A stretch of 64,000 nucleotides of DNA from Centroscyllium fabricii (taxonomy: Eukaryota): positions 22,444,001-22,508,000 of the forward strand of contig JBNRSN020000016.1 in the NCBI GenBank assembly GCA_051313645.2, read 5' to 3'. Below the pieces are notes generated by a model. The model saw nothing but the letters and a program-made list of their open reading frames with translations. It ran no database searches and was not told the origin of the DNA. Each line of letters opens with the position of its first letter. Position 1 is the first letter of the stretch. Of this stretch, positions 6,065 to 63,203 are shown one piece after another. The translations under genes and the position numbers were made by a program.

Positions 6065-6535
6065 CCGCACTGTTCCTGGAGAGGACGGCGGGGTCGGTGG
6101 AGTAGAGCACCGGTGCTCCTCAATCGGGGCACCGGTGCTGAACAAGCCGTCGTGGTCGTCGGAGCGCCGGGGTGCTGAGAGCGGGCTCGGAGATCCGTGG
6201 GGCCGTCGGGCTCGGAGAGCCGTGGGGGCCGTCGGGCTCGGAGAGCCGTGGGGGCCGTCGGGCTCGGAGAGCCGTGGGGGCCGTCGGGCTCGGAGAGCCG
6301 TGGGGGCCGTCGGGCTCGGAGAGCTGAGGGGCCGGGAGCTGCGAGACCGTCGTGGCTGGAGCGCCAGGGCCTGCGTGGCCGGGACCGGGCGCATCGTGGC
6401 TGCAGCGCCTGGTGGGATGGAATGGATCAGACTGGGACCAAGGACATTTAATAATTTGGGAGATTGCATGTTTGCATTTCGTTGTTTTGTGTATGTTCAC
6501 TTTACAATGACAATAAATTGAATCTTATCTTATCT
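6065..6535 (+). mobile_element. retroposon 3' region with GC-rich 25/26-bp tandem repeat
   Basis: units GTCGGGCTCGGAGAGCCGTGGGG(G)CC; ends ACAATGACAATAAATTGAA(TCTTA)n; second copy at 14577-15080. Confidence 0.65.
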
Positions 6536-6662: not shown

Positions 6663-8284
6663 ACCAACGGTCGGTGGTGTTTATGTTTAACACTAAACAA
6701 CGGGGTAAAATTAAGAATGATAAGATCCTTCGGTGGCGGATCGAGCTCTCAACTTACGAGTACAACATTCTTTACCGGCCAGGTAAGCTCAACAAGCCCC
6801 CGGATGCCCTGTCCAGGGGAACGTGCGCCAGTGCCCAGCTTGAGCGGCTGCAGGGCCTCCATGATGGCCTCTGCCACCCGGGTGTCACCAGACCCGCCCA
6901 CTTTGTGAAGTCCCGTAGCCTCCCCTACTCCATCTCGGAGATCAAGGCTATGACAAGAGTGCCCTGTCTGCGCTGAATGCAAACCCCAATTTTACAGGCC
7001 AGAAAGGGCGCACATCACTAAGGCCACCCGCCCCTTCGAGCGCTTGAGTGTGGACTTCAAAGGTCCCCTCCCCTCCACTGACCGCAACTCGTATTCCCTC
7101 ACGGTCATCGACGAGTTCTCCCGCTTCCCCTTTGCCTTCCCCTGCACAGATATGACGAGTGCAACGGTGATCAAACACTTCACCATGCTGTTCGCCATTT
7201 TCGGTCTCCCCAGCTATATCCACAGCAACCGGGGGTCGTCATCCATGAGCGACGAGCTGCGTCAGTTCCTGCTCCAGAAGGGGATTGCCTCGAGCAGAAC
7301 GACCAGTTACAAACCCCGGGGGAACGGCCAGGTAGAAAGGGAGAACGGGACGATCTGGAGGGCGGTGACCCTGGCCCTGAAGTCCAGAGGCCTTCCAGTA
7401 TCCCGTTGGCAGCAGGTCCTCCCCGACTCGCTCCATTCCATCCGCTCTCTGCTGTGTACCGCTACCAATGCCACACCTCACGAGCAATTGTTTTCCTTCC
7501 CCAGGAAATCGACTTCGGGGACAGCACTCCCGCTGTGGCTGACCACCCCAGGGCCAGTGTTGCTTAGGAAGCACGTCCACGGCCACAAGAAGGACCCCCT
7601 GGTGGAACGGGTGCAGCTGCTCCACGCCAACCCGCAATATGCGTTCGTGGCATACCCGGACGGGCGCGAAGACACGATCTCAATGAGGGACATGGTGCCC
7701 GCCGGGGCCACGATCATGGAACCCCCGGTTGAGCCTCAGCTTCACCAGCCACCACCCACCGAACACTGGCCCCCATACACACACACACCGGGGCCCTCGC
7801 CATCAACGGCCGATGAACAGAGGTCGGACATCGCACCGCTGCCACCATTGGCGGACGACACGACCCCGACCCCGCGACCAGAAGCACCATCACCGGCACC
7901 CCATCGGTCCCTCAGGCAGACACGGACACCCGAGAGACTGAACACAGAATGCTAATTTGCCAACTGTGTTAGCGCATGTTCACCCCGCCGGACTCATTTT
8001 TAAAGAAGGGGTGAATGTGGTAAACCTGTATTTCGCCACTGTATTGTACCACTGTAATGGTACCATAATGCACCACTGTACATATGTAGATATCGGTATA
8101 CAGGAGCCTGCCTCAGCTGACCCACCTCTGACTCCTCCCCTGAGTCCAGGTATATCGGTAATTGCCTACCATCCCCCGGTCAGTACAGACCCAAGCTCAG
8201 CTGAGACACGCTCCATTCTATAGTTAATAAAAGCCTTTAGTTGAGGTAACTATTCGCCTTTGTGTCTTAATTGACGATACGTCA
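6663..8284 (+). mobile_element. Gypsy LTR retrotransposon (lineage 2), 5'-truncated: RNase H end, integrase, PPT, 3' LTR
   Basis: KIKNDKILRWRIELS, HHCC remnant, SVDFKGP...VEREN; PPT AAAGAAGGGGTGAA 8002-8015; LTR 8016-8284 TG...CA. Confidence 0.92.
6674..7955 (+). pseudogene. pol: Gypsy pol fragment (RNase H C-terminus plus integrase), frameshifted near 6960
   Basis: ORFs 6674-6976 and 7044-7955 align with the minus-strand pol at 61336-63013; second catalytic D reads N (IHSNRG). Confidence 0.88.
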
Positions 8285-11199: not shown

Positions 11200-11925
11200 A
11201 TTCATTCATGGGATGTGGTTGTTTCCAGTGTGGTAACCGTTATATGTACTCTTATTACCACCTTAATATTGTTACCAATATTACACAGTATGTATAGCGG
11301 CCGGGTGCATGATACAACTGTCCTGTATTGCGACACTGTCGCGGGGTCAGGTCAGCCACACCTCTAACTCCTCCCCTCAGGTGAGTGCCTTATAGGTGGG
11401 GACTGATCTGCCCCCATCCATTCTGTACCTGATGTTCGATCGGAGCGTAGCTCCTTTGTAAGCTAATAAAAGCCTATAGTTAAGGTAACTACACGTCTTT
11501 AGTTTTATTAAGACTATTGACGATACGTCATCCAGCAAGACCAGCATTTATTGCCCTCGAGAAGGTGGTGGTGAGCTACCATTTTGAGCACAACTTAGTG
11601 TCTCTTTAGGCCATTTCAGAGGCCAGTTAAAAGTCAACCACATTGCTGTGGGTCTGGAGTCGCAAATAGACCAGATTCGGGTAAGGATGACAGATTTCCT
11701 TCCCTAAAATGTATTAGTGAACCAAGTGGAGTTTTATGGTAGCTCCACGTTCACCATTAACTGATACTGTACTAGCTGTTTTTTTATTCCGGATTGAATT
11801 AATTATTTTAAATTTAAATTCCCCAACTGCCATGGTGGGATTAGACTCAAGTCTCACAGATCATTAATCCAGACCTTACCTGGATTGACATAGTACTAGT
11901 AACACAACCATTATGCTACCGTACC
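11200..11925 (-). mobile_element. tRNA-derived SINE family B, interrupted by a solo LTR
   Basis: similar to copies at 32053 and 43070 (GTCAACCACATTGCTGTGGGTCTGGAGTC). Confidence 0.7.
11229..11530 (+). mobile_element. solo LTR, Gypsy lineage 2
   Basis: TGTGGTAA...GATACGTCA, AATAAA, 5-bp TSD TCCAG. Confidence 0.92.
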
Positions 11926-14330: not shown

Positions 14331-14576
14331 TCCATCCCTTCGACACAAGGAAAACAACAAAAATGGAAGATTAAAAGCCATAAGTGTGTTAATCACCATT
14401 AGGGATGTATCCTGATCTACACCATTGTGAATTTGCAATCCCATTTCCTACATCAGCCACTCTCAAACCAGTTTAATGTTTAATTATTTAAACACATTCT
14501 GGGGCTTTGGGCATCACCAGCAAGTCCGGCATTTATTTCCCATCGCCTAGTTGTCCTTGAGAAGGTGGTGGTGGCC

Positions 14577-15080
14577 TAGCGGGCTCGGTGAGCCGTGGGG
14601 CCGTCGGGCTCGGAGAGCCGTGGGGCCGTGGGGCTCTGAGAGCCGTGGGGCCGTCGGGCTCTGAGAGCCATGGGGCCGTCGGGCTCGGAGAGCCGTGGGG
14701 CCGTCGGGCTCAGAGAGCCGTGGGGCCGTCGGGCTCGGTGAGCCATGGGGCCGTCGGGCTCGGAGAGCCGTGGGGCCGTCGGGCTCTGAGAGCTGTGGGG
14801 CCGTCGGGCTCGGAGAGCCATGGGGCCATCTGGCTCTGAGAGCTGTCGGGCCGTCGGGCGCCGGGAGCTGCGAGGCCGTCGTGGCTGGAGCGCCAGAGCC
14901 TGCGTGGCCGGCACCGGGCGCATCGTGGCTGCAGCGCCGGGTGGTCCTGGTGGGATGGAATGGATCAGACTGGGACTAAAGGACATTTAATATCTTGGGA
15001 GATTGCATGTTTGCATTTCGTTGTTTTATGTATGTTCACTTTACAATGACAATAAATTGAATCTTACCTTATCTTATCTT
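14577..15080 (+). mobile_element. second copy of the retroposon 3' region with 25-bp GC-rich minisatellite
   Basis: about 11 units; 3' end matches 6340-6535; flanked by direct repeat (CT/TT)AGTTGTCCTTGAGAAGGTGGTGGTGG at about 14547 and 15079. Confidence 0.7.
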
Positions 15081-18419: not shown

Positions 18420-20562
18420 ATTCAATTCAATTCAATTCAAATAGCTTTATTGGCATGAATGGTATCAACCGGTTTTGCCAAAGCATTGTAACATACATAA
18501 AAAAATTACATTAGTAGAGCATTATAACATACATTGTAACATACATAAAAATAATACATTAGTAGACGTAATACATAGAATAATACATTAGTAGACGTCT
18601 TGACAACCGTACATTAGTTACGCACACATGTACATTTATACCCGCATATAGAGCTTGTATGCTCATCCTAGCTTCAATGGTCACTGGTTGTCCCTCTGCT
18701 TATGGCAAGCTGTGACGTAGTTTGCCGCTAGTTTTACACATTCCCTCTGTTCCCCTAATAGGTATGGGAGTTTCTGGTGGTCGGTCAAATTTTTGAATTC
18801 AGGACATGTTGTTGCAAATTTTGGGAAGAAATTTCCCCTTATTCCCTGATAGATTTTGCAAGTTGTGAGGAAGTGCAGCTCTGTCTCCACCACTCCCTGA
18901 CTGCAGTGGGAGCACAGCCTTTCCTCTCTGAGCAGCCAAGTCTTTCTGTGTCTGCCTTTTTCGATGGCTAGGCTGTGCTCGCAAAGTCTGTACATTGTCA
19001 GGGTTTTTCTCAGTTTGCTATCTTTCACCATGGACAGGTAATCCGCCATGGTGTACTGTCTGTTTAGGGCCAAATAACAATCTAGTTTGTTTTGGGTTTT
19101 TGTCGTTTCTGTCCAGTAGTTCAGGTATTTTTCTTTTTGTTTAGTAATAATTGTGTTGGGTCGGATTCTGAGTGCTAGAGCGTCACTGTCCAGGGGTTGG
19201 TTGTTACCAGTAGTGTTAGTAGTTTTTCCGCTAAGTTGGTTGTTAACAGTAGTGTTAGTAGTTACTTCGCTAAGTCCTAGGACTAGTTGGTTGAGGGGAC
19301 TTCTTTTTATGTTCGCTTCTTGGCATTTCAGGGCTTTGTAGTGATAACTGTGGGGGTTGCTCAGTTTGAGATGTTTCCAGAATTTGATTGCTCTTTTTTG
19401 GATTTTAAATAGTAGTGGGTATTGGCCTAACTCTGCCCTGCATGCATTTTTTGTGGTTTTCCTCTGAGTCCGAAGGATACTCTTACAAAACTCAGCATGC
19501 AGGGTCTCAATTGGGTGTTTGTCCCATTTTGCAAATTCGTGGTGTGTTAGCAGACCCCACACCTTGCTGCCATAAAGTGCAATTGGTTCAATTACTGAAT
19601 TAAAAATTTTGATCCAAATGCCAGGTGGAATTTCTATTTGGATTGACTTCTTAATGGCATAGAATGCCCTTCTCGCTTTCTCTTTCAGTTCGTTCACAGC
19701 CAAGTGAAAATTTCCCGTGGAACTGATTTTTAACCCTAAGTATGTGTAGTTTGTAGTTTGTTCAATTTGTGTTGCTCCTAGTGTGTAGTTTGTTTTGGTT
19801 CCCTGATGTCTGGTTCTTTGCTGGAATACAAGAACTTTGGTTTTTTTGGGGTTTATTTTCAATGCCCAATTCTGGCAGAATGACTCTAACCGATCGAGGT
19901 TCTGCTGTAGACCCTCCTCTGTCGGTGACAGCAGGACTAGATCATCTGCATACAGGAGGAATTTAACCTCGGAGTCATGCAGGTCGAGGCCCGGTGCTGT
20001 AGATTGTTCCAGTGTTTTTGCCAGTTCATTTATATAGATGTTAAAGAGAGTTGGTGACATAGACGAGCCCTGTGCCACGCCACGCCCCTGTGGGAAGTAT
20101 TTTGTTTGTTTATCTCCGATTTTAACTGCACATTTGTTTCCTGTGTACATTGATTTAATCACATCATACGTTTTTCCCCCTATCCCACCTTCGATGAGTT
20201 TTAGGAATAGACCATCGTGCCAAATAGAGTCGAATGCCTTTTGGAAATCTATAAAGCAGGCAAAAATTTTGCTTTTATTTTGGTGGACATGTTTGTCTAT
20301 TAGGGTGTGTAGGGTGAAAATATGGTCAGAGGTTCTATAGTTTGGTAGGAATCCAATTTGGCTGTTACTCAGGACATTGTGCTCCGTGAGAAAGCTTGTG
20401 AGTCTTTTGTTTATGATACTACAGAATACCTTCCCCAGGTTGCTGCTCACACAGATGCCTCTGTAATTGTTTGGGTCAAGTTTGTCTCCACTTTTAAATA
20501 TGGGTGTTATGAGTCCTTTGTTCCAGACTTCAGGGAAGTAACCGACACTCAGAACCAAGTTG
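18420..20562 (-). mobile_element. RTE-X-like LINE, 5'-truncated
   Basis: RT ORF, 3' UTR with AATAAA and (TTGAA)n tail, 9-bp TSD AAGCTTTCA at 18411-18419 and 20563-20571. Confidence 0.85.
18681..20562 (-). CDS. non-LTR reverse transcriptase with C-terminal CCHC zinc finger; uninterrupted but lacking the endonuclease and start
   Basis: NYRGI, FIDFQKAFDSI, GVAQGSSMSPTLFNIYI, LLYADD, YTYLG, LAIEKGRH...RLCSHC...ETELHFLTTC; the first ~45 aa of the tracked ORF come from flanking DNA. Confidence 0.88.
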
Positions 20563-21020
20563 AAGCTTTCACTTTTTGGAACTGTGAATGTTGTGATTGA
20601 AACACCTACTGTAATTACATGTCGGTTCTTTAATAAATCTATATATTTTTGGAATTGCCCCACGTAATACTTCTGTATCAAACTCGCAAACTCAATCACT
20701 GCTCACTCTTTGGTGAGACGTTGCAGAATTCTGGGGGAGTTTTCCGGACCCTCATAATATCTGGAATGTTGCAGTCTAGCTAAACTTATTAAAAAGTGCT
20801 ATCGGAAGGACGGTGACATCTTCAGGTAGTTCCGTTCCCTTACGGAGTGATGGTCCGCACCTTTAGACCCAATAAAGCATCTTTACGATTCTGCTACCTC
20901 AAACTTTAATTGAAAGTGAACGTCTGGGGAATACGCCTGATCTGGGGTAGCCCTAAAGGGGCTAGGACTAGTAATTATCCCTTCAGCACCTCGGACCTCA
21001 CCATTTAGGTGAAGGTGCAG

Positions 21021-25779: not shown

Positions 25780-26900
25780 CTAAGCAAATCTGGTCAAGAT
25801 CAGTGCATTCTTTGCATCCCGGGCAGCAATGTTCTCGCGTGCTGCTGCCACTGGTTGATGCGCCGCTGCAAGCTCTTCATTCTCGCTCTCCTCCTCCTCA
25901 TCTGAGGAAGATATATGAGGAGCCACTTGTACCTCAGGCAGCTGCAAGCCACGATGCTGTGCCATGTTGTGAAGTGCACAGCAGACCACAATGATTCTGG
26001 AGACCCTGGCTGCTGAGTACTGCAGGGCTCCACCTGATCTATCAAGGCATCTGAGTCGCATCTTCAGCAAACCGATGGTTTGCTCGATAATGGATCTGGT
26101 GGAAATGTGGCTGGAGTTGGAGTGCTCCTCGGCTTCATTGGATGGCCTCCTCAAATGCGTCATTAGCCACGTCTTCAGGGGATAGCCCTTGTCTCCAAGT
26201 AGCCATCCGCAAATTTGGTCTGGCAGACTGAAGAGCGAAGGCACACTAGACTGGCACAGGATGAAGGAGTCATGGCAACTGCCAGGGTACTTGGCGCAAA
26301 CTTACAAAATTTACTTCTTGTGGTTACACACCAGCTGCACGTTGAGGGAGTGGAAGCCCTTGCGGTTGACAAAAATACCTGGATTAGGATGGGGTGCCTT
26401 AAGGGCCACATGTGTGCAGTCTACGACGCCTTGCACCCTTAGAAAGTCTGCCAGATTAGCAAATCCAACGGCACGCGCGGCTACACTTGCTTGATCCTTG
26501 GAGAATTTGATGTAATTGTGCGCATTGGCCAAGAGGGCATTGGTTACCTGCGTGATGCCAGTGTGTGCGGCCACCTGGGAGATGCCGCTGATGTCTGCAG
26601 ATCCTTGGAATGAGCCTGAAGCAAAAATGTTGAGAGCGGTGGTGACTTTGACGGCCACTGGTAAGGGGTGTCCACCCGTTCCTCTGGGCTCCAGGTCTTG
26701 CTGCACCATTGCGCAGATGTCACCCACTGCCTCTCGCGAAAGTCTGAGCCTCCTTTGGCACTAAGCTCAGTCATGTTGAGGAAGCTCATCCTCTGTAAAC
26801 CCTGTTTGGGGAGTATCACCTGCGCTGACGTCCTTCCCTGCGCTGGTGCCTTCTGGCCTGTGCAGCTTAAGGTGGGTGAGCAGCAGGTTGGCACTTCTGT
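25780..26900 (-). pseudogene. Harbinger DDE transposase (HARBI1-like), frameshifted
   Basis: [65 protein letters not shown] across several frames. Confidence 0.9.
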
Positions 26901-28110: not shown

Positions 28111-28950
28111 CATGTAGCGTCTTTAATGTGGTAAAACGTCCCAAGGCGCTTCAGAGAACCACATAAAGAAATGTTAGGACGTTTGGCCAAGAGCTTGGTC
28201 AAAGAGGTAGATTTTAAGGAGGGTCAGAGAGGAGGAGAGAGGTGGAGATGTGGAGAGGTTTAGGGCGTAACGCCAGTATGTGATTAGCATCCCGCATTGT
28301 TGGGAGGTATGATTCAGTTTAAAAATTAAAGTGCCCACCCCAGAGAATGTAACCGATTGCTGGGCGATTGATCTACCAAAACTTTGTGTCCGATCTAGCA
28401 GAGCCCAGATGCTTTTCCCTGGCTTGATAAACGATGGCTCCTTTTAAGCTTCTGCAGGTGACAGAATTCTCCTGGGTGCAATAGGAAAACCTAGTGGGAA
28501 CCCACCAGAGATATGTGAATTAACGTGACCCTGGTAAATTTGCGAGTGTCAGTGCCAGCGACTGGCGGGCGAGTGGAATTTCTGATCCACCCCACTTACT
28601 GTGGTATATCTGTTAAATAGGAACAATAGGAAAGTCTAGACCAGGACAACTCAGACTTGCTCAGTACAATTTCTCCACTGAATTGTGCTCTCAGCTGAGG
28701 TCACATTGCTGTCACTTTGCCTTTGGGAGTACTTAAAAAGGCATCATCGTGAAAAAGTTTTCATCTAGCCTATTTTCAGTTATTCGCACGTACAAAACAG
28801 GATAAAATAAAATGTCAAAACACATTATGAGAAAAAGAATGATTTGTGCATTTCTGGCTTAGCTTCCCTTCAAAACAGAAAAAAAAGTTGGCACATGTTT
28901 TTAAAAGCAAGAACATGTTCTTGTATTATTAAGACCTGTAATAGCTCCAT

Positions 28951-30745
28951 TAGATTCTGGGAAACATGGAACAGCCCCATCTGATTCTAGACAACCTGGA
29001 ACAGCCCTGCCTGATTTTAGACAACCTGTAACAGGCCCGTCTGATTCTGGACAACATGGAACAATCCTGTCTGATTCTAGACAACCTGTAAAAGTCCCAT
29101 CTGATTCTAGACAACATGTAAGAGCCCTGTCTGATTCTGGACAACCTGTAACAGGCCCGTCTGATTCTAGACAACCTGTAACAGCGCCGTCTGATTCCAG
29201 ACAACATGTAAGAGCCCTGTCTGATTCTGGCCAAACTGGAACAGCGCCGTCTGATTATGGACAACCTCTAACAGCCCCGTCTGATTCTGGAAAACATGGA
29301 ACAGACCCGTCTGATTCTAGACAACCTGTAACAGCCCCGTCTGATTCTAGACAACATGTAAGAGCCCTGTCTGATTCTGGACAACATGTAACAGACCCGT
29401 CTGATTCGGGACAACCTGGAACAGACCCGTCTGATTCTGGACAACTCGAAACAGCCCTGTCTGATTCTGGAAAACATGGAACAGACCCGTCTGATTATGG
29501 CCAACCTGGAACAGCCCCATCTGATTCTGCACAACCTGTAACAACCCTGTCTGATTATGGGAAACCTCTAACAGCCCCGTCTGATTCTGGAGAACATGGA
29601 ACAGACCCGTCTGATTCTAGACAACCTGAAACAGACCAGTCTGATTCGGGACAACCTGGAACAGCCCCGTCTGATTCTGGGCACCTTGGAAAAGCCCCAT
29701 CTGACTTGGACAACCTGTAACAGCCCCATCTGATTCTAGACAACCTGTAACAGCCCTGTCTGATTCTGGACAACCTGAAACAACCCCATCTGATTCTAGA
29801 CAACCTGGAAAAGCCCCGTCTGATTCTAGACAACCTTCAACAGCCCCGTCTGATTCTAGACAACCTTCAACAGCCCTGTCTGATTCTGGACAACCTGAAA
29901 CAACCCCATCTGATTCTGGACAAACTGTAACTGCCCCGTCTGATTCTAGACAACCTGGAAAAGCTCCATCTCATTCTGGACAACCTGGTACAGTCTCATC
30001 TGATTCTGGACAACCCGTACAGCCCCGTCTGATTCTAAACAACCTGTAAGAGCCCTGTCTGATTCTGGCCAATATGTGACTGCCCCGTCTGATGCTGGGC
30101 AACCTGTAACAGCCCCACCTGATTCTAGACAACGTGTAAGAGCCCCGTCTGATTCTGGACAACATGTAACAGCCCTGTCTGATTCTAGACAACCTGTAAG
30201 AGCCCCGTCTGATTCTGGACAACATGTAACAGCCCTGTCTGATTCTAGACAACGTGTAAGAGCCCCGTCTGATTCTGGACAACATGTAACAGCCCTGTCT
30301 GATTCTAGACAACCTGTAAGAGCCCTGTCTGATTCTGAACAATATGTGACTGCTTCGTCTGATTCTGGACAACCTGTAACAGTCCCGTGTGATTGTAGAC
30401 AACCTTTAACAGTCTCATCTGATTATGGACAACCTGTAACAGCCCTGTCTGATTCTGGACAACTTGTAACAGCCCCATCAGATTTTGGACAACCTGTAAC
30501 AGCCCCGTCTGATTCTGGACAACCTGTAACAGCCCCGTCTGATTCTAGACAACCTGTAGCAGCCCCATCTGATTCTGGACAACCTGTAACAGTCCCGTGT
30601 GGTTCTAGACAACTTTTAACAGTCTTGTCTGATTCTGGACAACCTGCAACAGCCCCGTCTGATTCTGGACAACCTGTAGCAGCCCTGTCTGATTCTGGAC
30701 AACCTATAACAGCCCCCTCTGATTCTGGGCAACCTGTAACAGCTC
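28951..30745. repeat. 30-bp minisatellite, about 60 units
   Basis: consensus CTGATTCTRGACAACCTGTAACAGCCCCGT, contiguous units, two 29-bp units near 29705 and 30018. Confidence 0.95.
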
Positions 30746-31844
30746 AGCATCTATTGCCCAATTTCACCTAATGTTGTCCGGCCTCCACTGTAAATCTCAG
30801 GTTAAAATATTTAGTGTTTCTTTGATGCATTCTAATGAGTTTGAGCAGGTGACACCTGTTATGCTGTCTTCTAATTCAACTACTTTTCTGGGATTTCAGA
30901 TCGGCAGAATTCCTTGCCTTCCCCAGTTTTCCTTTTCTTCTGCACTCTTCGGACTTTCAGAACCCAAGCTTTACATCACCAAATCACTCTTCCCTCCTAC
31001 TCTTTCCAACTTGTGTGGTGTCTAGCCCTAAGGTCCTTCACCTAGTTTCTTCCATTAAAAAAAAATTAAGACCCAAATGGAAATGTTATTTCCTACTAGT
31101 TTTACAAGTCACGAAGTACCATTCACATCTCCACCATAATTGTACATCAGACGCATATAGACCAGCTCATTGCAGCAATGAGTTTTTTAAATACACTTCA
31201 CTAAACATTTTCCCCCTATTCCAAGCACTGATTTATTGATTCAGTCACTGTTTACACAGCAGAGCAGTGCTGGCCTCTTTGCATTGCCTCATGTGTCATC
31301 AGTGTGCGTCCAACTGCAACAACATTCTGTAGAAAGAACTTAAACTCCACGCCAGATATTTCAAGTATTTCTTCTGTCATTCTCTTGCCTCTGGACAACT
31401 TTGCATTCCCTTTGATTTGTCAACATTGTCCTGCTCACTCATTCCCTGCCAGCTCGCCCGTACACCGGCGTTACCATCAGCACAACACGCTGTCTGTCAG
31501 TGCGTGTCACTGTGCTAACTTTGCAGGCCTCGTGGCCCGAGCATTGCAAGCAGTGACAGCGGTGTCACAAAATTTAGTTGCTTGCGGAACACCAGGCTGA
31601 AACTTTTGAAAGCTGGCATCTCACCTCAAAGGCAGAAATGAACAATCACAATCTTGGCAGTCACTGAAACATCATGTCGAATAAACGTAAGAATTTTCTC
31701 GACACGGAGCTGAAAACAATTGGTTCCATCAGAATGAAGCCTAATTGATAGGATTTCAGTAAATTTCACAACACAGAAACTTTCAGCGACCGTCCTAACA
31801 CGGATGTTGTAAAATAACATTTGGTGAACTTGCAATTAAATTTG

Positions 31845-32673: not shown

Positions 32674-35600
32674 GTGTTCAATTTTCCTTCAGCTGTGGGG
32701 AATTAGCGGGTTTCTGTCAGGTCAGGTTTCCCACACGAATCCTAAAGGGCCTGGGAGCCCCACACAATTTTGGCTCAATTGGCCAATTGATTTCCAGCGT
32801 GTGGGAACCCTTGGCAACTGAGTATTTCCAGTCAGAAAGTCGCACAATATGATGTCATCGTTGCTGGTGCATTTCAGGTCCACAGCAAGGCTTGCTTCTG
32901 CTGCAGACTGCCAACCTTTTGCCCTTTCATGCCAGAGGGACCTGGAGGCAGAATCGCCATCGAGAGACCTAGGTCTGCTTCCAGGTTTGGTGATGTGGCC
33001 CTGCAAGCTTTAGTAGAGGGAGCAAGAGCTCATAAAGAGGTGCTCTTCCCTTCTTCAGGGAGGAAGAAGTCTCCCCAGCAGGCTGTGTGGATCCAGGTGG
33101 CAGAGGAGGGCAACTCATTATCAGAACCCCGCAGAACCTGGATTCAGTGCAGGAAGAGATTTCATGACCTTCTACACACTGGAAAAATGAGGATGGAATT
33201 CCCCTCACCCTCAATCTGATCCCCAATGCCTTTCCTCACCAGCACTCGGCTTCAGCAATCTCTTCCTCCACATCCCACTTGACACTCACATCCATGCACC
33301 CTTACCCATTCCCTCTCTCTCTCTATGCTCACATTCACATTACTATTCCACCATGCAGCCCTCACACTCCCTATCACTCTGATGCTTTGAACACAACTGA
33401 CAACACATATGGAGTGCCCTTGGTCTGCCCACCTCACTCCATCTTTGTCTCCTTCTAAGTATCTATGCTATGGAATCTCTACACTCACTCCTTCATTCTC
33501 ACTCAACCTCCATTTGTCTCCCTCATTGCAGGAAAAGAGAGCTCACAATAAGTGAGAAAGAGTGAGGACAGGAGGAGGGTCACCCTCACTAGCCCACCTC
33601 AACCCCTGGGAGGAAGTGGTCCTGGAGATCGTAGAAGTGGAGGAAGAAGCGCAAGTGGGGGACAGACAGACGGGTGCATCACAGCAAGCTGGGGACAGAT
33701 TAGTTCTCCATCTCTCTCATTGACATTGCATGAGTCGCTGATAATGATTCTGAAGATCTAACAGATGGACTTATGATCATCTGCAATACGCAATGTGCAT
33801 GTAACCTTGGCCTCACATCTCTGACTCTTTCCTTTACTCCCCCACAGGACCATCGCAAGCAGCCGTCCCCACTAGCCAGGAGGAAGAGCCAGAGCATCCG
33901 GACTCCTCAGAGGAAGCTGCAACCTCTGAGGGCGCAGCATCAGCAGAATTCAGCGCACCCAGCACCAGCGCAGACACTCACACCTCGGGGGGACCTTCGG
34001 GACATAGAGTAGTGTTGGCACCTGGTGTCTCACAGCTCAAAAGTGAGCATCAGCAGATGGTGGAGACAGGGGCAGCAGTGCAGAGTCCTAGTCAGAGGGT
34101 GCAGGACTTTGCCAGCTGGGCTCAGCTGCATGTCGACCCTCTGCCTCAGGGTCCATCCATAAGATCGGTGGTGGTGGAACTCCAGGAACAGATGCAGGAG
34201 TGGGTGGGTGAGCAGCAGCCTGGCGCTCCTGTTGCTGCTGCTGTTGTTCCTGGTTCTGCTGGTGCCACAGCTGGTGGGGGAGCTCATCTAATGCCCAGAA
34301 AGGAATGAAATAAATGGCATCATGCTTCTGGCATATGCCTCCACTGAGAAAGGGCTGAGTGAAGGTGCTGAGAGGGGTTTCCCAGGAGTTCACACTGGAG
34401 ATATGTGTGAGGCTCCAACCTTCCACAGGTGTGCTTAAGACTTCCAGAAGTTGCCCCAATCCTGAAAAAATAAGGCCCTGCCACCTGCATATGATGGCTG
34501 ATTCAATCTCATAATTTATGATGGACTTCAATTCAATTCAATTCAATTCAATTCAAGTTTTATTGTCATTGCAGAGTACTAGTACAATACAACGAGACGA
34601 AGACTCGACTCTCCCGAGAGTAGTGCAAATAAAATAAATAAATTACATGCAAATTGCATACAGTAAAGTACATTATCAGGCATGCAGGTACCGGAGTTTC
34701 TTTTTAGAGTTCAGGAGGCTGACAGCCCTGGGGAAGAAGCTGTTCTGAAATCTAGTCGTGCGGGTGCAAATTGCTCTGTAGCATCTCCCGGAGGGCAGGG
34801 GGGCGAACAGACTGTGGCTGGGATGTGTGGGGTCTTTAATAATGTTCATAGACCTCCGTAAGCAGCGTTTGAGGTAGATGCTTTCCATTGACGGTAGCTG
34901 TGTACCGGTAATTCGTTGGGCAGTTTTGACTACCCGCTGCAGGGTCTTCCGGTCCGAGATGGTGCAATTACCATACCAGACAGTGATGCAGCTTGTCAGT
35001 ATGCTTTCTATTGTGCAGCGGTAGAAGTTGGAGAGGATGCCGGATGACAGCCTGGCTTTCTTCAGCTTCCTTAGGTAGTACAGGCGCTGTTGGGCCTTCT
35101 TAACCAGAGAGGAGGTGTTTAGTGACCAGGAGAGATCTTCCGAGATGTGGACCCCGAAGAACTTGAAGCTGGGCACCCTTTCCACCTCAGCCCCTTGGAT
35201 GAAGATGGGGGTGTGTCTTCTGCCTCCAGTCCTCCAGAAGTCCACTATGATCTCCTTAGTTTTCTTGGTGTTCAGTGCCAGGTTGTTGTCGGCACACCAA
35301 CCCACAAGACGCTGGATCTCATCCCTGTAGGCTGACTCATCGTTGTTGGTGATCTGGCCAAACACCATGGTGTCATCCGCGAACTTGATGATCGTGTTGG
35401 AGCCATGGACAGCCGCACAGTCGTGAGTGAAGAGGGAGCAGAGGAGGGGGCTGAGCACACAACCTTGTGGGGCCCCCGTGTTCAGGGTAAGGGGAGAGGA
35501 GGTGAGGTTGCCTAACTTCACAGACTGTGGTCTGTTGGTTAGGAAGCCCAGGGTCCAGTTGCAGAGGGAGGTGTTCAGGCCGAGGGTGAGGAGTTTGGTA

Positions 35601-35943
35601 AACAATTTGCTGGGGACTTGCAGCTGAAAGTCAGCAAGCCGAATATATCCCCGCCAGGTTTCACCGGCGGTGTTTCCAGCTGGCAGGTTTTGTGTGGGAA
35701 AAGGCTGAAAATTGCAAGGACCCCTTAAAATGGGATTATAGATGCCAATCAAGGATGATTAAGGTGCCTAAAGACCATTCCCGCCAGTCGCGGGCGGGAC
35801 TGATTTGGGTCGAACAGACAATGGCAGGGGAAAATTGCAATGCGTCGGGAAACATGCAGGAGGGGTCGCGGCCCCCCGGTTTTGCAATTTTGTGGCCCGC
35901 CCCACCGAAAAGCCCGCCTGACGGCTCAAGGAAAATTGACCCC
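32674..35943. mobile_element. internally deleted Harbinger relative carrying a Rex1 insertion
   Basis: TIRs about 17/20 (GTGTTCAATTTTCCTTCAGC / GCTCAAGGAAAATTGACCCC); Myb 5' part (WIQCRKRFHDLLHTGK) joined near 34200 to the transposase 5' region. Confidence 0.78.
34529..35613 (-). mobile_element. Rex1/Babar-like LINE, 5'-truncated, RT C-terminal half open
   Basis: [17 protein letters not shown], Rex1 C-terminus, (TTGAA)n tail, TSD GGACTT at 34523 and 35614. Confidence 0.9.
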
Positions 35944-43542: not shown

Positions 43543-44528
43543 TTATGGACAATAATGGACAATGCCTTGAACAGCCGAGCTGCAGGCTCCTGTGAGGAGA
43601 TGCCAAATACTGGGCTGAGGCTAAGCCACTGGGGGTACTCGCGTGGATTTTGGTTTTGAAATCCTGGCTGTACATCAGCTGTGATCTGCCGTTCAGTCCA
43701 GTTTGTTAGCTGCGCCTAGCCTACCCCTTTAGGAGATAAAAAAGAAAATACTTAAAAGAGATAAGCAGAAAGCTTTTTCTGACCTGGAAGAGGAACCAAG
43801 GATTTACAAGCAGCTGCCAATCTACAGGGAAGCAATTAACCACTAATGGACCTCTGGACATGGCTAAGGCCTTGACTTGACCTCCGGATGTGCCTTTTGC
43901 AGTAATTCGACCTTGCAACCTTCAAGGGACAGGACCTTTGCAGCAGAATAATACACTGCGCGTTACCTGGTGCGATGCTCCTATCTTCATAAAGCATCCA
44001 CTTTACCATGAACAAAGGCCACCAGGGGAATCGACTCATCTAAAATAACAACAGAAAAGGTTCTGGAAATTTGCAGAAGTTCCACAGGCAGCGGAAAGGA
44101 GCAGAGGAGGATCAGCGTTTCAGAGATGGAACATCTACAGTCCAGATATTAGCCCATCTTGTGTTCAGATGCCAAGAGACTTGCTGTGTATCTCCAGCAT
44201 TTTCCGGCTGTGTTTGTCACCCAGCCAGTAACAGACAGGCACTGTCACCATGAACCAAATGGTTCCCTCCTCCATTTGAATTTCTACAAACTGAAATGGA
44301 AAAGATGCTCGACGTGCACAGTAACTTGGACAGGTTTCTAATTGCACTTTCTTTCTTTGGGCATCGGACATAGAATCAGAATCAGCATTAGCACCAGAGC
44401 TCCCCCCATTTGAGTGGAATTTCCCAAATCTGATCCCGAATCCGAGCATGTGGATCGATTCGCTTTCACTGCCAGAGCTGCCAACACAGGTAATCTGCCT
44501 TTCAGATGAGACGTTAAACCGAGGACCC

Positions 44529-45232
44529 AATTTTGTTAACTATATTTTGAAAATGGAGAGCAGTACAGTAAAGCCGGAATGCCTCGATATCAACCCCCAG
44601 GCGCCGAACGCTGCAAATGACTTTGAACATTCGTTCCGCTGTGTCGAGGCCTACATGAAGGCCGTGAAAGCGACCAGTGACGAGGACAAGCTGCAGGTAC
44701 TGGTCTCCAGAGTCAGCCGCCCAAAAACAGAAGGACAACTACATGCGCCCGGTCAACTCAGTCTACGCCAGGCATCTATTCGGTCAGAAGACAATGGCTG
44801 GGTGAGTCAAATGAAGAATTCCTCCAAGCGCTCCAAGCCCTCATACGGGCCTGCGACTGCCAGGCAGTGACGGCAGAAGAATATGCCAACCACCTGGTCC
44901 GTCATGCGTACGTAACAGGGCTCAGGTCCAGCCAGGCCCGCCAACGGATGCTGGAGCAGGAAAAACTATCGCTCGAGTCCGCCATTACGCAATCTAATGC
45001 GGTGGACGATGCACTCCGGCGCTTGGATGCATACAGTGAGAGCAGCTCCCACGCGGGCCCACCTAACCTCTGGGCGCCGCAGACATGGGTCGAAGCCCCA
45101 ACGATGGCAGCGGCAGCTGCGAAGACGCCGGCAGGGCCCAAATGCTACTTCTGCAGCTAGGCGAAACACCCGCAATCACTGTGCCCCACGAAGAGCGCGA
45201 CCTGCGCGAAGTGCGGAAAGAAGGGCCACTTG
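44529..45232 (+). pseudogene. gag: Gypsy gag fragment with leader (lineage 2 by inference)
   Basis: ATG 44553 MESSTVKPECLDINPQ..., zinc knuckles CYFC...H....C and CAKCGKKGH; frameshifts and a stop. Confidence 0.78.
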
Positions 45233-53680: not shown

Positions 53681-56600
53681 TGTGGCGACACGCCCACCAA
53701 GACCAACAAATCCGCCTCGGGAGTACTGCGGGACATGGCCCCGCCCGCCGGGCGGCGTGATGACATCACCGGGACTTCCGGCAGTGACGTCACCAACCGC
53801 GGGCCCTTTAAATATGCCTGTTCCAGGTGGCTCAGTCTCTTCGCTACCTGGCCCTTGCAGTGTAAACTATTAAATGAGTGTTATCCGATCTCACTGTCTC
53901 TAGCGTGGTTCATCAGGCCTGCATGCACTACAGTGGTGACCTCGATACTTGGAACGACTTCCAAGGGAACATAATGAAGCAGTTGCTGCAGGACTGAGGG
54001 CCAAGCTGCCTCAGTACACTCCCAACCAACATGCCAGCAGGGAGCCAAACAGCGCGACTCCACAGACTGGGCCAGAACTCCGGCCAAATACCAACCCTGC
54101 CAGAGTTCTGGGAACTACATCCAGCGGCTTGGTTCCTCAGCACGGAGAACACCTACCGCATCCATGGCGTACAGGGGGACGATCGATACAACCTGCTCTT
54201 CGCGGCCCTATCACAGACCACGGTCGACCGAATGTGGTCATCGATACAGCACGAACCAACCGCTGGCAGGTACGAATTCCTTAAGGCCGCGCTGCTAAAG
54301 AAATTCACCCCCTCCCAGTTTGAGCGCGACTGCCAGCTCATTAACCTCCCCGAACTCGGGGACGCAGACCCATCAGACCTCTGTGCCCAAATGGAAGCGC
54401 TCAATTGCGACCCAGCCACCATTAAGCGCACCTTGTTCCTCCTCAAACTGCCTCCCTCCGTCAGACCGGCTCTGACGATCCTCTACCACTACAGTAAAGA
54501 GCAACTGGCTGAGGAGGCCGACAAGCTGATGAGGGCCGAGCACTCCTGAGCCGCCACGTGCGAGCCCACTGCCGCGGCACCGGAGCACTACTATGTGCAC
54601 CCCAGGTCCGGCCCCAAGTCTGAACCCAGGCCAGTGCGCACCCGCAAAAAGCCGCGCACAACAGGCCCCGGCTGGTGTTACTACCACACCAGGTTTGAAG
54701 CTAAAGCGCAGCGCTGCGTCCAGCCCTGCACCTTCAAACCCCAAACCAGCTCAAGCCCCACCATGTCCGTAGGCCGCTCTGGAGCACTGCTCTTCGTCAC
54801 GGACAGCGGCTCAGGCCTCCGCTTCCTCTGCGACACAGGCGCGCAGCACAGCATTGTGCCAGCCTCCCCCGCAGAAACCAAGCAAGGCACCCAAGGCCCA
54901 CCACTCGAAGCCGCAAATGGCTCCGAGATAGTTACGTTCGGCACCCGCAAGCTCACCATCAAGCTAGCAGGCCACACGTACCAGTGGGACTTCATCACAG
55001 CCCAAGTCAAACTACCCCTCGTCGGGGACGATTTTCTTTGCGCCCACGGCCTACTGGTCGACGTGACCCGGCGCCGCCTGGTCGACATCCATAACATGTC
55101 GACCATCCCATGCTCCACAGGGCCGGCACACCAGGCCCACGCAGCGTCCCACTGCCGAGCCCGGAAATCCGACACGTACGGAACGCTCCTCGCGGAGTTC
55201 CCAGCCCTCACCAAACCCATCCTCACATCCCGCACAGCCAAGCATGGGGTGGAGCATCACATCACCACCACAGGCCCTCCAGTCCACGCCCACGCACGCA
55301 GGCTGGACCCGGCCAAGCTGGAGATCGCGCGTACCGAGTTCCACATCATGGAACAACTCGGCATAATCCGCCGCTCCAGCAGCCCCTGGGCCTCTCCCCT
55401 CCACATCGCCCCCAAACCCGGCGGTGGCTAGCGCCCCTGCGGAGACTATCGCCGCCTCAACAACGCCACCACCCCAGACAGGTACCCCGTACCCCACATC
55501 CAAGACTTCTCAGCAAGGCTATCCGGCTGCATGATTTTTTCAAAGATCGACCTGGTACGGGGCTACCACCAGGTACCGGTGCACCCGGCGGACGTCCCTA
55601 AGACAGCCGTCATTACCCCTTTCGGCCTTTTCGAGTTTCTCCGAATGCCCTTCGGACTCAAAAACGGGCCCAGGCCTTCCAACGCCTCATGGACTCAGTC
55701 CTACGGGACTTGCAGTTCACATTCGTCTACCTGGACGACATCCTCGTGGCCAGCACCTCCCCCCAGGAACACCTCCTCCATCTCAGGACCCTGTTCAAAC
55801 GCCTGGTCGAACACGGCCTTATATTAAGCCCCTCCAAATGTCGGTTCGGCCTCGAGACGATCGACTTCCTCGGCCACCGCATTTCCCAGACCGGGGCCAT
55901 ACCCCTGCCCTCCAAGGTGCACATGGTCCAGGAATTCCCCCGCCCGCACTCCATCAAGGGGCTGCAGGAATTCCTTGGGATGGTTAATTTTTATAACCGC
56001 TCCATCCCAGGAGCAGCCGCTCTCATGGCACCCCTCTACCAGGCCACCCGCGGGCAGTCCAACAAGGCTGCGGTCGAGTGGATGGCCGAAGCCACCACCG
56101 CCTTCACCGCAACCAAAACCGCCCTGGCCAACGCCACGCTCCTAGCCCACCCTAGGCCCAATGCCAGAGTGCCCCTCACCACCGACGCCTCCGACCGCGC
56201 CGTCGGAGCAGTCTACGAGCAGTGGACAGGCAACTCCTGGCAACCCCTGGCCTTTTTCAGCCGGCAACTCCGGCCCCCGGAGGTCAAGTACAGCACCTTC
56301 GATAGGGAGCTACTCGCTCTCTACCTCGCAGTGCGCCACTACCGCTTCCTCCTAGAGGGCCGCCACTTTACAGCCTTCGTAGATCACAAGCCACTCGTGT
56401 CAGCGATGGCTAAGATCGCCGAACCCTGGTCGGCCAGGCAGCAGCGCCAGCTCGCGGCTGTGTCGGAGTTTACCACCGACATACAGCACATCGCCGGCCG
56501 CGACAACGTGGTTGCTGACTGCCTGTCACGTCCCACCATCAACTCCGTACAAACGGCCGTCGACTACGCCAAACTGGCGGCCGACCAACTGACCGACCCC

Positions 56601-58228
56601 GATCTGCTCGACCCAGCTACCAACCTCCCCGGCCTGCACTTGGCCACCGTAGCACACGGGCGCACAGCCACGGCGGTCCGCTGCGACGTCTCCCTCCCGC
56701 AGCCCAGACCCGTCGTCCCCCACGCATGGAGGCGACACATCTTCCAGACCCTCCATGACCTGTCCCACCCCGGCGCCCGCGCGTCCACTAAGCTGATTTC
56801 GGCACGTTTCGTTTGGTGCGGCCTGCTCAAGGATGTCCGCGCCTGGACCAACGCCTGCACTGCCTGCCAGCGCGCCAAGGTGCACAAGCACATCAAGGCA
56901 CCACTAGAAACGTTTGCCATCCCAGCTAGACGCTTCAGCCACGTCCACATCGACCTGGTCGGACCACTACCGCCATCACGGGGACATACACACGTCATGA
57001 CAATGGTCGACCGCAGCACCCGCTGGCCAGAAGCGGTCCCACTCACCGCTACCACCACCGTGGACCTGGCCAGGGCCTTCATCGCCACCTGAGTCGCACG
57101 TTTCGGCGTACCCACCGACATCACGTCGTACAGGGGCCCCCAATTTACCTCAACCCTATGGGCGACCATCGCCCACGACCTCGGGGCAACCCTGCACCAA
57201 ACCACCGCCTACCACCCACAGGCCAATGGCCTCTGTGAACAGTTCCACTGCTCCATCAAAGCTTCCCTGCGGGCCAGCCTTAAGGACGCAACCTGGACCG
57301 ACCGCCTGCCCTGGGTAATGCTCGGCCTACGCTCAGCGGCCAAGGAAGACCTACATGCCTCAGCGGCGGAACTCGTCTACGGCCAACCCCTAACCGTACC
57401 AGGCGAGTTCGTCGCAGAACCCAACGCCCCCTGGTCAGCCGACCGCTGCCTCAAGGAATTTAACAATCAGGCAGGGGCGTTCAAACCACTCCCGGTGGCC
57501 TGGCACGGAGAGCCGGCAGCACGTGTGCCAGGCGGCATCAAGAACGCCAAATATGTGTTTGTCCGCCACGACGCACATCGAACACCACTACAGCCACCGT
57601 ACGATGGACCGTACAGAGTGCTTCGGGCGGGACCTAAGACATTCCAAATCAAAATGGGCAACAGAACGGAGACTGTCTCGATTGACCGGCTCAAACCGGC
57701 ACATGTAATGGCGGGTGAGACAACAGTCCCCGCGCAGCCACCAAAATGCGGACGCCCTACCGCACCAAAGCCCGCCCACACTCCCATGCAGAACAAGGAG
57801 CAGCGCACGACACGTGCCGGCCGCATCATCCGGCCACCGCAACGCCTCGCCTGAGACTCACCTTTTATGCTCCATTTTTTAATTTTTACTTTATTCTCCC
57901 TTTTTTTATTTTTAACTTTATTCTCCCTCACAGATTCTGGGGGGGAGCTGTGTGGCGACACGCCCACCAAGACCAACGAATCCGCCTCGGGAGTACTGCG
58001 GGACACGGCCCCGCCCGCCGGGCGGCGTGATGACGTCACCGCGACTTCCGGCGTGATGACGTCACCGGGACTTCCGGCAGTGACGTCACCAACCGCGGGC
58101 CTTTTAAATATGCCTGTTCCAGGTGGCTCAGTCTCTTCGCTACCTGGCCCTTGCAGTGTAAACTATTAAATGGGTGTTATCCGATCTCACTGTCTCTCGC
58201 ATGGTTCTTCAGGCCTGCATGCACTACA
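53681..58228 (+). mobile_element. full-length CsRN1-type Ty3/Gypsy provirus
   Basis: LTRs 53681-53932 and 57951-58228 (TGTGG...CTACA), 4-bp TSD ACAC, Trp-like PBS TGGTGACCTCGA, G-rich PPT, order gag-PR-RT-RH-IN. Confidence 0.95.
54031..57854 (+). pseudogene. pol: Gypsy gag-pol with stops (54547, 55429, 57090) and a frameshift near 55665
   Basis: CYYHTRF...[47 protein letters not shown]. Confidence 0.92.
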
Positions 58229-60955: not shown

Positions 60956-63203
60956 TGTTACCGAATTAACGACCTCGGAGACGAGATATTAAGAGGTGAA
61001 ACAATCGGCTTTTATTAGCTAAAGGTGGACATGCACCAGCTAGTCGACCGTCCCCAGGAATGGCTGGGGGAAGGGAGACGGCCGCTTATATACCTGGTCC
61101 TGGGAGGGAGGAGTCGCAGGCGGGGCCAGCATGGGCATGTCCAGGTAACAACACACAGAGAACTATTATACAACATGGTTATAGGTGATTACAGTAATAT
61201 ATACATATATATATATACAGAGTGGTTTACCACATTCACCCCTTCTTTAAAACGAAAGTCCGGCGGGGTGAATGCGACAGTTTTTTATTATCATTACAAG
61301 TCCAGCCTGTCGGGTGGCCTGGTTTGCCTGGTTGATCAGCGCACCGCTGGCGGTGGGGTCGGCGGACGTACTGTTGTTGGTTGAGCTGGTCGTAGCGGGG
61401 TCGGCGTGGGTGTTTGGTTCTTCGTCGGTGCCCTTGTGGTAAAGGTTAGCGGCGCGCTCTCCCACTCGTCGTCCGACTCTTGGCCGCGTGCACTATGGAG
61501 CCATGCCGGGAGCCATGCCGTGCTGCCTGCAGGTGCTGGGTGGGCGTACCGTGGTGCTGGAGCCTCGTGCTGAGCGACGTACCTTGGTGCAGCTGGCCCG
61601 GGGGGGGTGGCGGGCAGGCGCGGGGGCGTGGGCTGTTGGGCAGGGCTGGTCTCGTGGGCACCTGCTGGTGCCAGGTCCTTGATGGGCACTGTGTCCTCCC
61701 TCCCGTCGGGGTATGCCACGTAGGCGTACTGGGGATTGGCGTGCAGGAGGTGGACCCGTTCGAACAGGTGGTCCGACTTGTGGCCCCTCACGTGCTTCCG
61801 GAGTAGGACTGGTCCTGGGGACGATAGCCATGACGGCAGCGAGGTCCTGGAAGCCGACTTCCTAGGGAAGGCAAAAAGTCGCTCGTGAGGGGTGGCGTTA
61901 GTGGCCGTACAAAGGAGTGACCGGAAGGAGTGGAGCGCTTCGGGGACGACGTCCTGCCAGCGGGAGACTGGGAGGCCTTTAGACCGTAGGGCTAACAGGA
62001 TGGCCTTCCAGACAGTGGCGTTCTCCCTCTCTACCTGTCTGTTCCCCCGGGGGTTGTAGCTGGTAGTCCTGCTAGTAGCGATGCCTTTGGCTAGCAGAAA
62101 CTGACGCAGCTCGTCACTCATGAAAGAGGCTCCCCGGTCGCTATGGATGTAGCTGGGGTAGCCGAACAGGGAGAAAATGCTGTGGAGGGCCTTGATGACT
62201 GTGGCGGAGGTCATGTCTGGGCAGGGGATTGCGAAGGGGAAACGCGAGTACTCGTCGATGACGTTTAGAACGTACATGTTTCTGTTGGACGAGGGAAGGG
62301 GCCCTTTAAAGTCGACACTGAGTCGCTCAAAGGGGCGGGTGGCCTTGATCAGGTGCGCCCGGTCTGGCCGAAAAAAGTGCGGCTTGCACTCCGCACAGAC
62401 CTGGCAGTTCCTGGTCATGGTCTTGACCTCCTCGATGGAGATGGGGAGGTTGCGGGACTTAACAAAGTGGACCAACCTGGTGACCCCCGGGTGGCAGAGG
62501 TCATTGTGCAGGGTTTGGAGATGGTCTACTTGTGCTCTGGCACATGTACTGCGTGATAGGGTGTCTGGGGGCTCGTTGAATTTCCCGGGTCGGTACAAGA
62601 TATCATAATTGAAAGCGGAGAGCTCAATTCTCCACCTCAGTATCTTGTCGTTCTTGATTTTACCCCGCTCTTTGTTGTTGAACATAAAAGCGACTGAGCG
62701 TTGGTCAGTCAGCAGGGTAAATCGTTTGCCGGCCAGGTAGTGATTCCAGTGTCGCACTGCTTCAACGATGGCCTGGGCCTCCTTCTCCACGGAGGGGTGA
62801 CGGTTCTCGGGGCCCTGGAGGGTGCGCGAGAAGAAAGCCACGGGTCTGCCCGCCTGGTTAAGTGTAGCGGCCAGGGCAAAGTCCGATGCATCGCTCTCGA
62901 CCTGGAACGGGACGGCCTCGTCTACGGCGTGCATCGTTGCCTTTGCGATGTCATCCTTTATGCCGCATAAAGCCGCGCGGGCATCTGCTGACAGGGGGAA
63001 TGAGGTTGATCCATGGACATGCCCATGCTGGCCCCGCCTGTGACTCCTCCCTCCCAAGACCAGGTACATAAGCGGCCGTCTCCCTTCCCCCAGCCTTTCC
63101 TGGGGACGGTCGACTAGCTGGTGCATGTCCACCTTTAGCTAATAAAATTGTTACCGAATTAACGACCTCGGAGACGAGATATTAAGAGGTGAAACAATCG
63201 GCT
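60956..63203 (-). mobile_element. Gypsy lineage 2 fragment: RNase H-integrase, PPT, 3' LTR (60956-61234), plus rearranged LTR pieces at 63014-63203
   Basis: LTR TGTGGTAAACCAC...GGTAACA on the reverse strand; PPT 61235-61248 identical to 8002-8015. Confidence 0.92.
61336..63013 (-). CDS. pol: Gypsy pol C-terminal part (RNase H, HHCC, DDE integrase), open but 5'-truncated
   Basis: ESDASD, EKEA, TDQRS, LHNDLCHPG...CQVC, SVDFKGP, HSDRG, VEREN; first ~40 aa of the tracked ORF are antisense LTR. Confidence 0.88.

Follow-up and report, generated by a model that had tools for sequence, protein, structure and literature searches.

The 64,000-nucleotide stretch of Centroscyllium fabricii DNA analysed here, hereafter the window, holds at 44528-44555 a retrotransposon leader devoid of the usual signals for tRNA priming. 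How is reverse transcription of such an element started? Bases 44528-29 are CA, followed by AT, by TTTGTTAACTATA at 44532-44544 and by the gag ATG at 44553. An earlier note, made from the sequence alone, had given this layout and remarked on the lack of a TGG-type primer-binding site (PBS); on re-reading the letters both the layout and the coordinates are correct. The note had also paired the 13-mer, 13/13 with one G-U, with TATAGTTAATAAA at 8219-8231 in a long terminal repeat (LTR), and this pairing stands as well. With no more than one G-U tolerated, and leaving aside the 13-mer's own complement, a search of both window strands gives position 8219 as its sole partner. The duplex is one base longer than noted, measuring 14 bp (44531-44544 with 8219-8232) and ending at AATAAAA, and is separated from the CA of the LTR by a 1-nt spacer. 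The G-U pair is a private change of this copy. A decayed Ty3/Gypsy copy has its leader at 44528-44555, and the CA alone is left of its 5' LTR; as this LTR is lost, the pairing with 8219 is not in cis.

That this gag belongs with the LTR at 8219 had been proposed in the same note, and is confirmed by a single full-length genomic copy that matches window 44528-45231 (87.5%) as well as 6663-8284 (84.5%), so that the 44528 gag and the 8016-8284 LTR fall in one family, denoted A. The family A parts at 44528-45231 and 6663-8284 lie on the plus strand. The last two LTR bases and the spacer (44528..44530; family copies read ...GATACGT-CA-A) precede the 14-nt PBS of non-tRNA type, complementary to the LTR tract (44531..44544), and a decayed gag fragment (44553..45231), interrupted after ~45231 by a SINE-like repeat. 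A decayed 3' part of pol, encoding the RNase H end and integrase (6663..8001), is followed by the polypurine tract (PPT) with the AA preceding the TG of the LTR (8002..8015), and by a 269-nt 3' LTR, TG...CA (8016..8284). In this LTR a TATA-like box at ~8151 places a predicted +1 at ~8182, by TATA/Inr spacing only, and the putative self-primer tract TATAGTTAATAAAA, which includes the poly(A) signal, spans 8219..8232 and would be cut after 8232. Further decayed pieces of family A LTRs reside at 1243-1409 and 11355-11509 (72–74% identity).

Full-length copies measure ~4.7 kb and feature 270–280-bp TG...CA LTRs, a PPT and 5-bp target duplications; the latter are exact in 8 of 10 two-LTR copies (from 20 stretches fetched) and near-exact in 1, one end of the remaining copy being unparsed. 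The domain order is gag (CCHC-type), protease, RT, RNase H, integrase. The order protease-RT-RNase H-integrase, checked in relatives and in window and genome copies, the TG...CA LTRs, the PPT and the target-site duplication are those of Ty3/Gypsy elements, and the best sequence match in PDB is Ty3 Gag-Pol (E 2e-96). No chromo Pfam family occurs among the precomputed domains of the 120 homologues listed, nor in 6 proteins scanned (E 0.01). On these sequence features, the leader belongs to a compact, chromodomain-less Ty3/Gypsy retrotransposon. Most sampled copies carry stops or frameshifts. The nearest named proteins are found in rays and catsharks (73–82% identity), the next in cnidarians (~60%); a scan of viral contigs found no relative. 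The copies of this element in the window belong to families A (44528, 6663-8284) and B (60956-63203), and a third family, A2, is encountered among the arms described below.

Pairing in cis was assessed in copies retaining both partners. Among 30 gag-selected family A loci, 2 had no tract and 1 was unparsed; in the 27 scored, at most 2 of 14 positions are unpaired in 25 copies, and 13 pair perfectly. Variable position 13 co-changes in 22 of the 25 copies counted, two with deletions being excluded; the pairs are AT (16), GC (4), TA (2), GT (1) and AC (2). Matches to the pattern AATAAAA-N35-60-CAATTTTATT number 172,604 in the host genome, versus 353 for the reversed control. In the first 30 loci in genome order, 175 of 180 positions left free by the pattern (six per locus) are Watson-Crick paired; 20,000 partner shuffles of these loci gave a mean of 121.7 and a maximum of 147, a comparison that is not a clean probability, as related sequences share history. 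Collapsed to 17 unique PBS types, 97 of 102 positions are paired (shuffle maximum 84), and positions 8, 9 and 12 each feature at least two types of pair. The PBS starts with TTT in genome copies; these residues are fixed by the pattern in the genome-wide search, and free in family copies examined apart from it.

Relatives were sought in metagenomes. Eighty loci were found in contigs, many of them from few assemblies and hence not independent, and 51 had enough upstream DNA. A duplex of at least 11 bp is present in 24 of the 51 regions, and in 1 of 255 shuffled regions. The layout tract-RCC...CA-N-PBS is conserved in 21 of 51, with letters unrelated to those of the host element. Re-inspection of 34 loci yielded ~11 more imperfect duplexes and 13 cases without a gag start; several loci lacked the relevant region, and L201 has no partner for its PBS position in the 130 nt read. 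The poly(A) hexamer varies among the relatives (AATAAA, ATTAAA, GTTAAA, TTTAAA, and GAAGA in L207), and where it is replaced (GTTAAA, TTTAAA, GAAGA) the duplex and the RCC that follows it are kept. In 3 of 3 leaders folded from correct coordinates, the duplex is the minimum-energy structure (z -2.1 to -2.9), and a central duplex accompanied by a hairpin at the U5 end is predicted in all.

The 13–15 nt at the PBS position, after the CA-A of the LTR, are complementary in cis to the LTR tract, and the two covary; self-priming, of whatever kind, is very probable. The covariation check proposed with the original observation was passed, the partner being found in the own 5' LTR of full-length copies. 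No TGG-type PBS, which would have spoken against the proposal, was detected among relatives with a definable LTR end, and the element does not have the TGG start of tRNA-primed Gypsy elements. As to a match with tRNA 3' ends, the screen, also proposed, covered 11 distinct Cys and Lys tRNAs from 30 fetched loci, with a longest 3'-anchored match of 4 nt. The suggestion that the primer ends at AAUAAA is supported as to self-priming, but the end is likely one base later (AAUAAAA), and the hexamers of the relatives tell that AAUAAA is not obligatory. Instead of the 11 nt of Tf1, the precedent cited in the earlier note, the primer likely measures ~53 nt, by the predicted start and by the ends of the arms.

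The first of these arms was met at 63150, on the minus strand, where the same leader layout had been claimed for another element. The layout is there, but the inverted LTR match extends for 134 nt (63147-63014) rather than 10. The U5 part of a family B LTR (63149..63203) begins directly after the tract and ends with CA, its upstream part being replaced by a SINE-like repeat. The PBS runs on into an arm of 134 nt (63014..63147), which is the element's LTR in reverse complement and carries a substitution at the predicted +1 (63096). Joined directly to this arm is family B pol (RNase H, integrase; 61235..63010), with a PPT after it, gag and RT being missing, and then the 279-nt 3' LTR (60956..61234; TATA 61092, predicted +1 61061, tract 61023-61010). 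The opposite-strand joint at 63147/63194 is found also in short-read contigs, possibly derived from the window's own sample. The 63150 copy is a read-through product, in which copying would have gone past the PBS into LTR sequence.

Similar arms were searched genome-wide with three junction patterns (373, 156 and 13 matches), and 153 of the 542 matches were analysed, in sets of 73 and then 80. Seven arms were dropped because of tandem repeats, shared junctions or, in one case, a U5 duplication, and 146 were kept. Loci L166-L169 (G000:C335:139983538-139984704) are four tandem 378-bp units, each made by an LTR piece, a 39-nt arm and the end of pol. One junction is common to L117, L123 and L320, and another is shared by L163, L164 and L302; some read-through products may have been re-amplified. 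A second inversion is found within the left-side U5 of copies L176, L180, L183, L313, L333 and L338.

A TATA box 80–86 nt, and an Inr-like CA(T/A)(T/A) 49–57 nt, upstream of the end of the tract are present in 28 of 30 loci. Predicted +1 positions were set by this geometry, without reference to the arms. In 39 of the 146 arms the end falls between 1 nt short of the predicted +1 and 2 nt beyond it, and in 8 it lies 3–6 nt beyond; 29 of the 82 short arms stop earlier, and 6 end between +7 and 190 nt. The other 64 measure at least 190 nt, and mostly reach the left end of the LTR. Each set shows the peak at +1, with 18 of 35 ends at most 1 nt away in one and 18 of 42 in the other (p ~1e-8 or lower against a uniform 34–60 nt null). 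Family B has the most pronounced peak (28 of 48 short arms), and the signal is weaker in A2 (9 of 28) and in A (2 of 6). Arm ends may be shifted by 1–3 nt by microhomology, and a G-run occurs just past +1 in all three families, where pausing of the polymerase might contribute to the peak. Arms of the cap class continue into element-internal sequence in 16 of 21 cases in the second set. Having two classes of ends, the arms point to two template ends, the predicted 5' end of the RNA and the left end of the DNA.

Family B comprises 106 long arms, against 8,614 normal LTRs. An A to T change at +1 marks 9 of 100 listed arms that cross this position and 0 of 100 normal LTRs (Fisher p 0.003, counted by eye), and the nine include the copy at 63150. 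One-base insertions at +1 were found in 3 of the listed crossing arms, and in 2 normal LTRs, which are both LTRs of one element. Such scars are rare, as only 1 of ~15 long arms of the first pattern-selected set is changed near +1 (by eye). An additional C at arm ends, as a cap might template, occurs in a few junctions, but the acceptor often templates it, and no claim is made. Short arms differ from their own LTR by 0.69 residues in 45 nt, and from the LTRs of other copies by 2.43 (n=29). Being closer to their own LTR, the arms were templated by sequences from the same parent.

Long arms may be part of complete palindromes. Twenty-three of these have both ends in host DNA, in a set that includes loci selected by BLAST besides the long arms found by pattern; 5-bp duplications flank 18 of the 23 exactly and 3 near-exactly. 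Intact palindromes measure 450–550 bp (~500), are gene-free and consist of LTR, A and inverted LTR (e.g. L082, L083, L084, L112, L118, L127, L140). The distinct flanks with 5-bp duplications rule out an assembly artefact, and show that palindromes were inserted by integrase-type integration. Nine long arms (L111, L131, L134, L137, L172, L305, L311, L316, L341) continue past the left end of the LTR into an inverted PPT and 3' pol, which suggests that an over-extended strand was transferred to a 3' LTR. No matched left LTR start was assigned in 47 long-arm rows, of which one is duplicated and a few were missed because of mismatches. Some long-arm loci, for instance L128, L132, L268, L319, L323, L324 and L330, have a left LTR truncated close to the tract or within U5, as though one-ended hairpins had integrated and been opened close to the loop. 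The left ends of truncated LTRs, tried as a map of the cut site, gather about the loop (~30 of the 56 scored as truncated lie within -47..+45 of the cut), but are not sharp and were not used.

In LTR retrotransposons the position of the primer sets the position of the LTR end, and the primer is copied during plus-strand synthesis. The primer of this element is probably the capped RNA running from +1 to AAUAAAA, that is, the first ~52–53 nt of the transcript, and likely pairs through its 3' end only. Transcription would start 29–31 nt after the TATA box, ~53 nt upstream of the end of the tract; the start itself is predicted from TATA/Inr, and the fossil arms likely place the 5' end of the primer at this predicted cap site. 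In the folded leader nucleotides ~40–53 would pair with the PBS, alongside the small hairpin at the U5 end, and a nuclease would cut after AAUAAAA, leaving a capped primer with an unpaired 5' tail of ~40 nt. By analogy with Tf1, the RNase H of the element is the favoured candidate for this cut, with some reservation. Copying of the primer during plus-strand synthesis would rebuild the PBS, and this would explain the covariation. At times synthesis would read on to the cap; a jump into the element interior would then give arms ending at +1, and fold-back or transfer onto the LTR would let the strand run to the left end of the latter, giving palindromes with two U3 ends, which integrase would insert with 5-bp duplications. 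In full-length RNA the same duplex would mask the 5' poly(A) signal.

Much of this evidence could also be accommodated by a self-primer of only 13–15 nt, trimmed at both ends, provided that the PBS, once rebuilt on plus-strand strong-stop DNA, paired with the tract in another, uncut RNA, which was then copied to the cap. Such a primer accounts equally well for the covariation, for the arms ending at +1 and for their match with the own LTR, and the primer of Tf1 is short (PMC7175516). However, a second cut would be needed, with no conserved site apparent for it, and the second RNA would have to come from the same parent; copying along an attached primer would be simpler, and a short primer seems unlikely here. 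The primer might otherwise be made by host 3'-end processing, without cleavage by RNase H, if a short capped transcript of the LTR stopped at the 5' poly(A) signal, or at that of a neighbouring 3' LTR, and was shortened as far as the paired AAUAAAA. Promoter and signal are present in both LTRs, arms end at +1, and the 3' end of the primer coincides with AATAAA or ATTAAA in most families, all of which would fit. Yet duplex and RCC are kept in relatives in which the hexamer is replaced (GTTAAA, TTTAAA, GAAGA in L207), the arms track their own LTR, which disfavours a primer pooled in trans, and the Tf1 precedent is one of cleavage by RNase H; host processing is considered improbable.

A further alternative is that the duplex only masks the 5' poly(A) signal, that priming relies on some host RNA, be it a whole tRNA, a fragment of one or a different molecule, and that arms are DNA fold-backs at a short inverted repeat. 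The duplex does cover AAUAAA, inverted repeats are able to seed fold-backs, DNA could suffice for long arms to form, and the tRNA screen covered Cys and Lys tRNAs only. But the duplex begins exactly 1 nt past the end of the LTR, the location required of a primer, and no single host primer can serve the 17 PBS types found in 30 loci together with those of the relatives. On a DNA template nothing ends at +1; of the 82 short arms, however, 39 have their end there, with only 6 between +7 and 190 nt. Masking with host priming is accordingly given very little credence. Priming by the capped 5' RNA may be extended to a broader proposal, in which the 5' LTR's own poly(A) signal serves as the primer end, one duplex both hiding the signal and defining the capped ~53-nt primer, possibly freed by host 3'-end processing, and read-through generating a new class of integrase-inserted palindromes of ~500 bp. 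This combined version is speculative, and rather doubtful as a whole.

In Tf1 the RNA's first 11 bases pair with the PBS, and RNase H cuts between bases 11 and 12 (PMC7175516). Like Tf1 and Tf2 of Schizosaccharomyces pombe, Tj1 of S. japonicus and the Tf1/sushi group, the present element is a Ty3/Gypsy with a PBS complementary to the RNA of its own 5' LTR, and not to a tRNA (PMC7175516, PMC4600332, bioRxiv 10.1101/2022.12.06.519325). Also shared with the Tf1 group are the use of a piece of the 5' transcript as primer, here a putative one, and a duplex, here predicted, beside the PBS at the U5 end. The leader of that group forms a 'pretzel' of three duplexes, and the folds of the present leaders predict the central duplex and a U5-end hairpin. 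Unlike in Tf1, pairing involves nucleotides ~40–53 and the poly(A) signal, with a predicted capped tail of ~40 nt counted from a predicted start. Read-through arms and two-U3 palindromes are not described in the accessible text on the Tf1 group and, in contrast to Tf1/sushi elements, the proteins have no chromodomain. As the element has no chromodomain and, by its predicted start, does not pair the extreme 5' end of its RNA as primer, it lacks two features of Tf1/sushi and is not assigned to that group. Cigr-1 of Ciona intestinalis has ~245-bp LTRs, one ORF of ~1,200 codons and a CCHC gag. These sizes fit the relatives of the element, a tentative likeness. The Cigr-1 clade is reported from molluscs (PMC6238403); the text available from this source holds no PBS data, and the KIKNDKI motif is absent from its searchable supplements.

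Self-priming was predicted in plants for Tcn1 (Gypsy) and for TAR, Houba and Osr-1 (Copia), from matches of at least 10 bp between the PBS position and the 5' LTR (PMC6317226). These cases show that self-priming arose more than once; they differ from the present one in that the accessible text gives no link to the poly(A) signal, and no map of the 5' end of the primer (PMC6317226). Elsewhere, as far as the available text goes, self-priming is mentioned only for chromoviruses, for fungal elements or in general terms (PMC3601003, PMC6934838, PMC5006619). The full-text literature, which leaves aside Repbase, subscription papers and several supplements, yielded no account of priming or of read-through arms in this clade. 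Repbase may hold notes on self-priming animal Gypsy families, and these could pre-empt the basic claim.

A second Gypsy element, which we take to be CsRN1-like, lies on the plus strand at 53681-58228. It encodes a DUF7041 gag, RT, RNase H and an H2C2 integrase, its LTRs are 96–97% alike, and a canonical TGG-type PBS is found at ~53935, 1 nt after CA. It resembles the family in the Ty3/Gypsy domain order and the short LTRs, but RT/RNase H are only 29% identical. The window also contains tandem arrays at 28821-30771 (30-nt unit), 14505-14929 (25) and 6173-6357 (26), the last two sharing a GC-rich unit, and fragments of a DDE_Tnp_4 transposase and of non-LTR RTs, on the minus strand (25780-26301; 18681-20702; 34676-35758).

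Experimentally shown self-priming rests on Tf1 of fission yeast, and the papers, in the parts available, link it to chromoviruses and a few plant lineages. Self-priming as such is already known from Tf1; what is likely new here are the read-through copies with arms ending at the predicted +1. In the present case the self-priming signature is the hallmark of an animal Gypsy lineage that has no chromodomain. Its LTR-PBS junctions number at least 172,604 in one genome of 7.2 Gb, and annotation tools which require a tRNA PBS would miss or downgrade this lineage. Should a long capped primer be used, the first strand transfer would be limited to the ~20 nt that separate the signal from the poly(A) site, plus-strand synthesis would need to stop inside unmodified RNA, and priming would be coupled to suppression of the 5' poly(A) signal. 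Read-through copies make it possible to map primers with no data other than a genome sequence; they also supply host chromosomes with palindromes. If the 5' poly(A) signal is the primer end, the genome would record the length of the primer and the start site for each family of a large animal Gypsy lineage.
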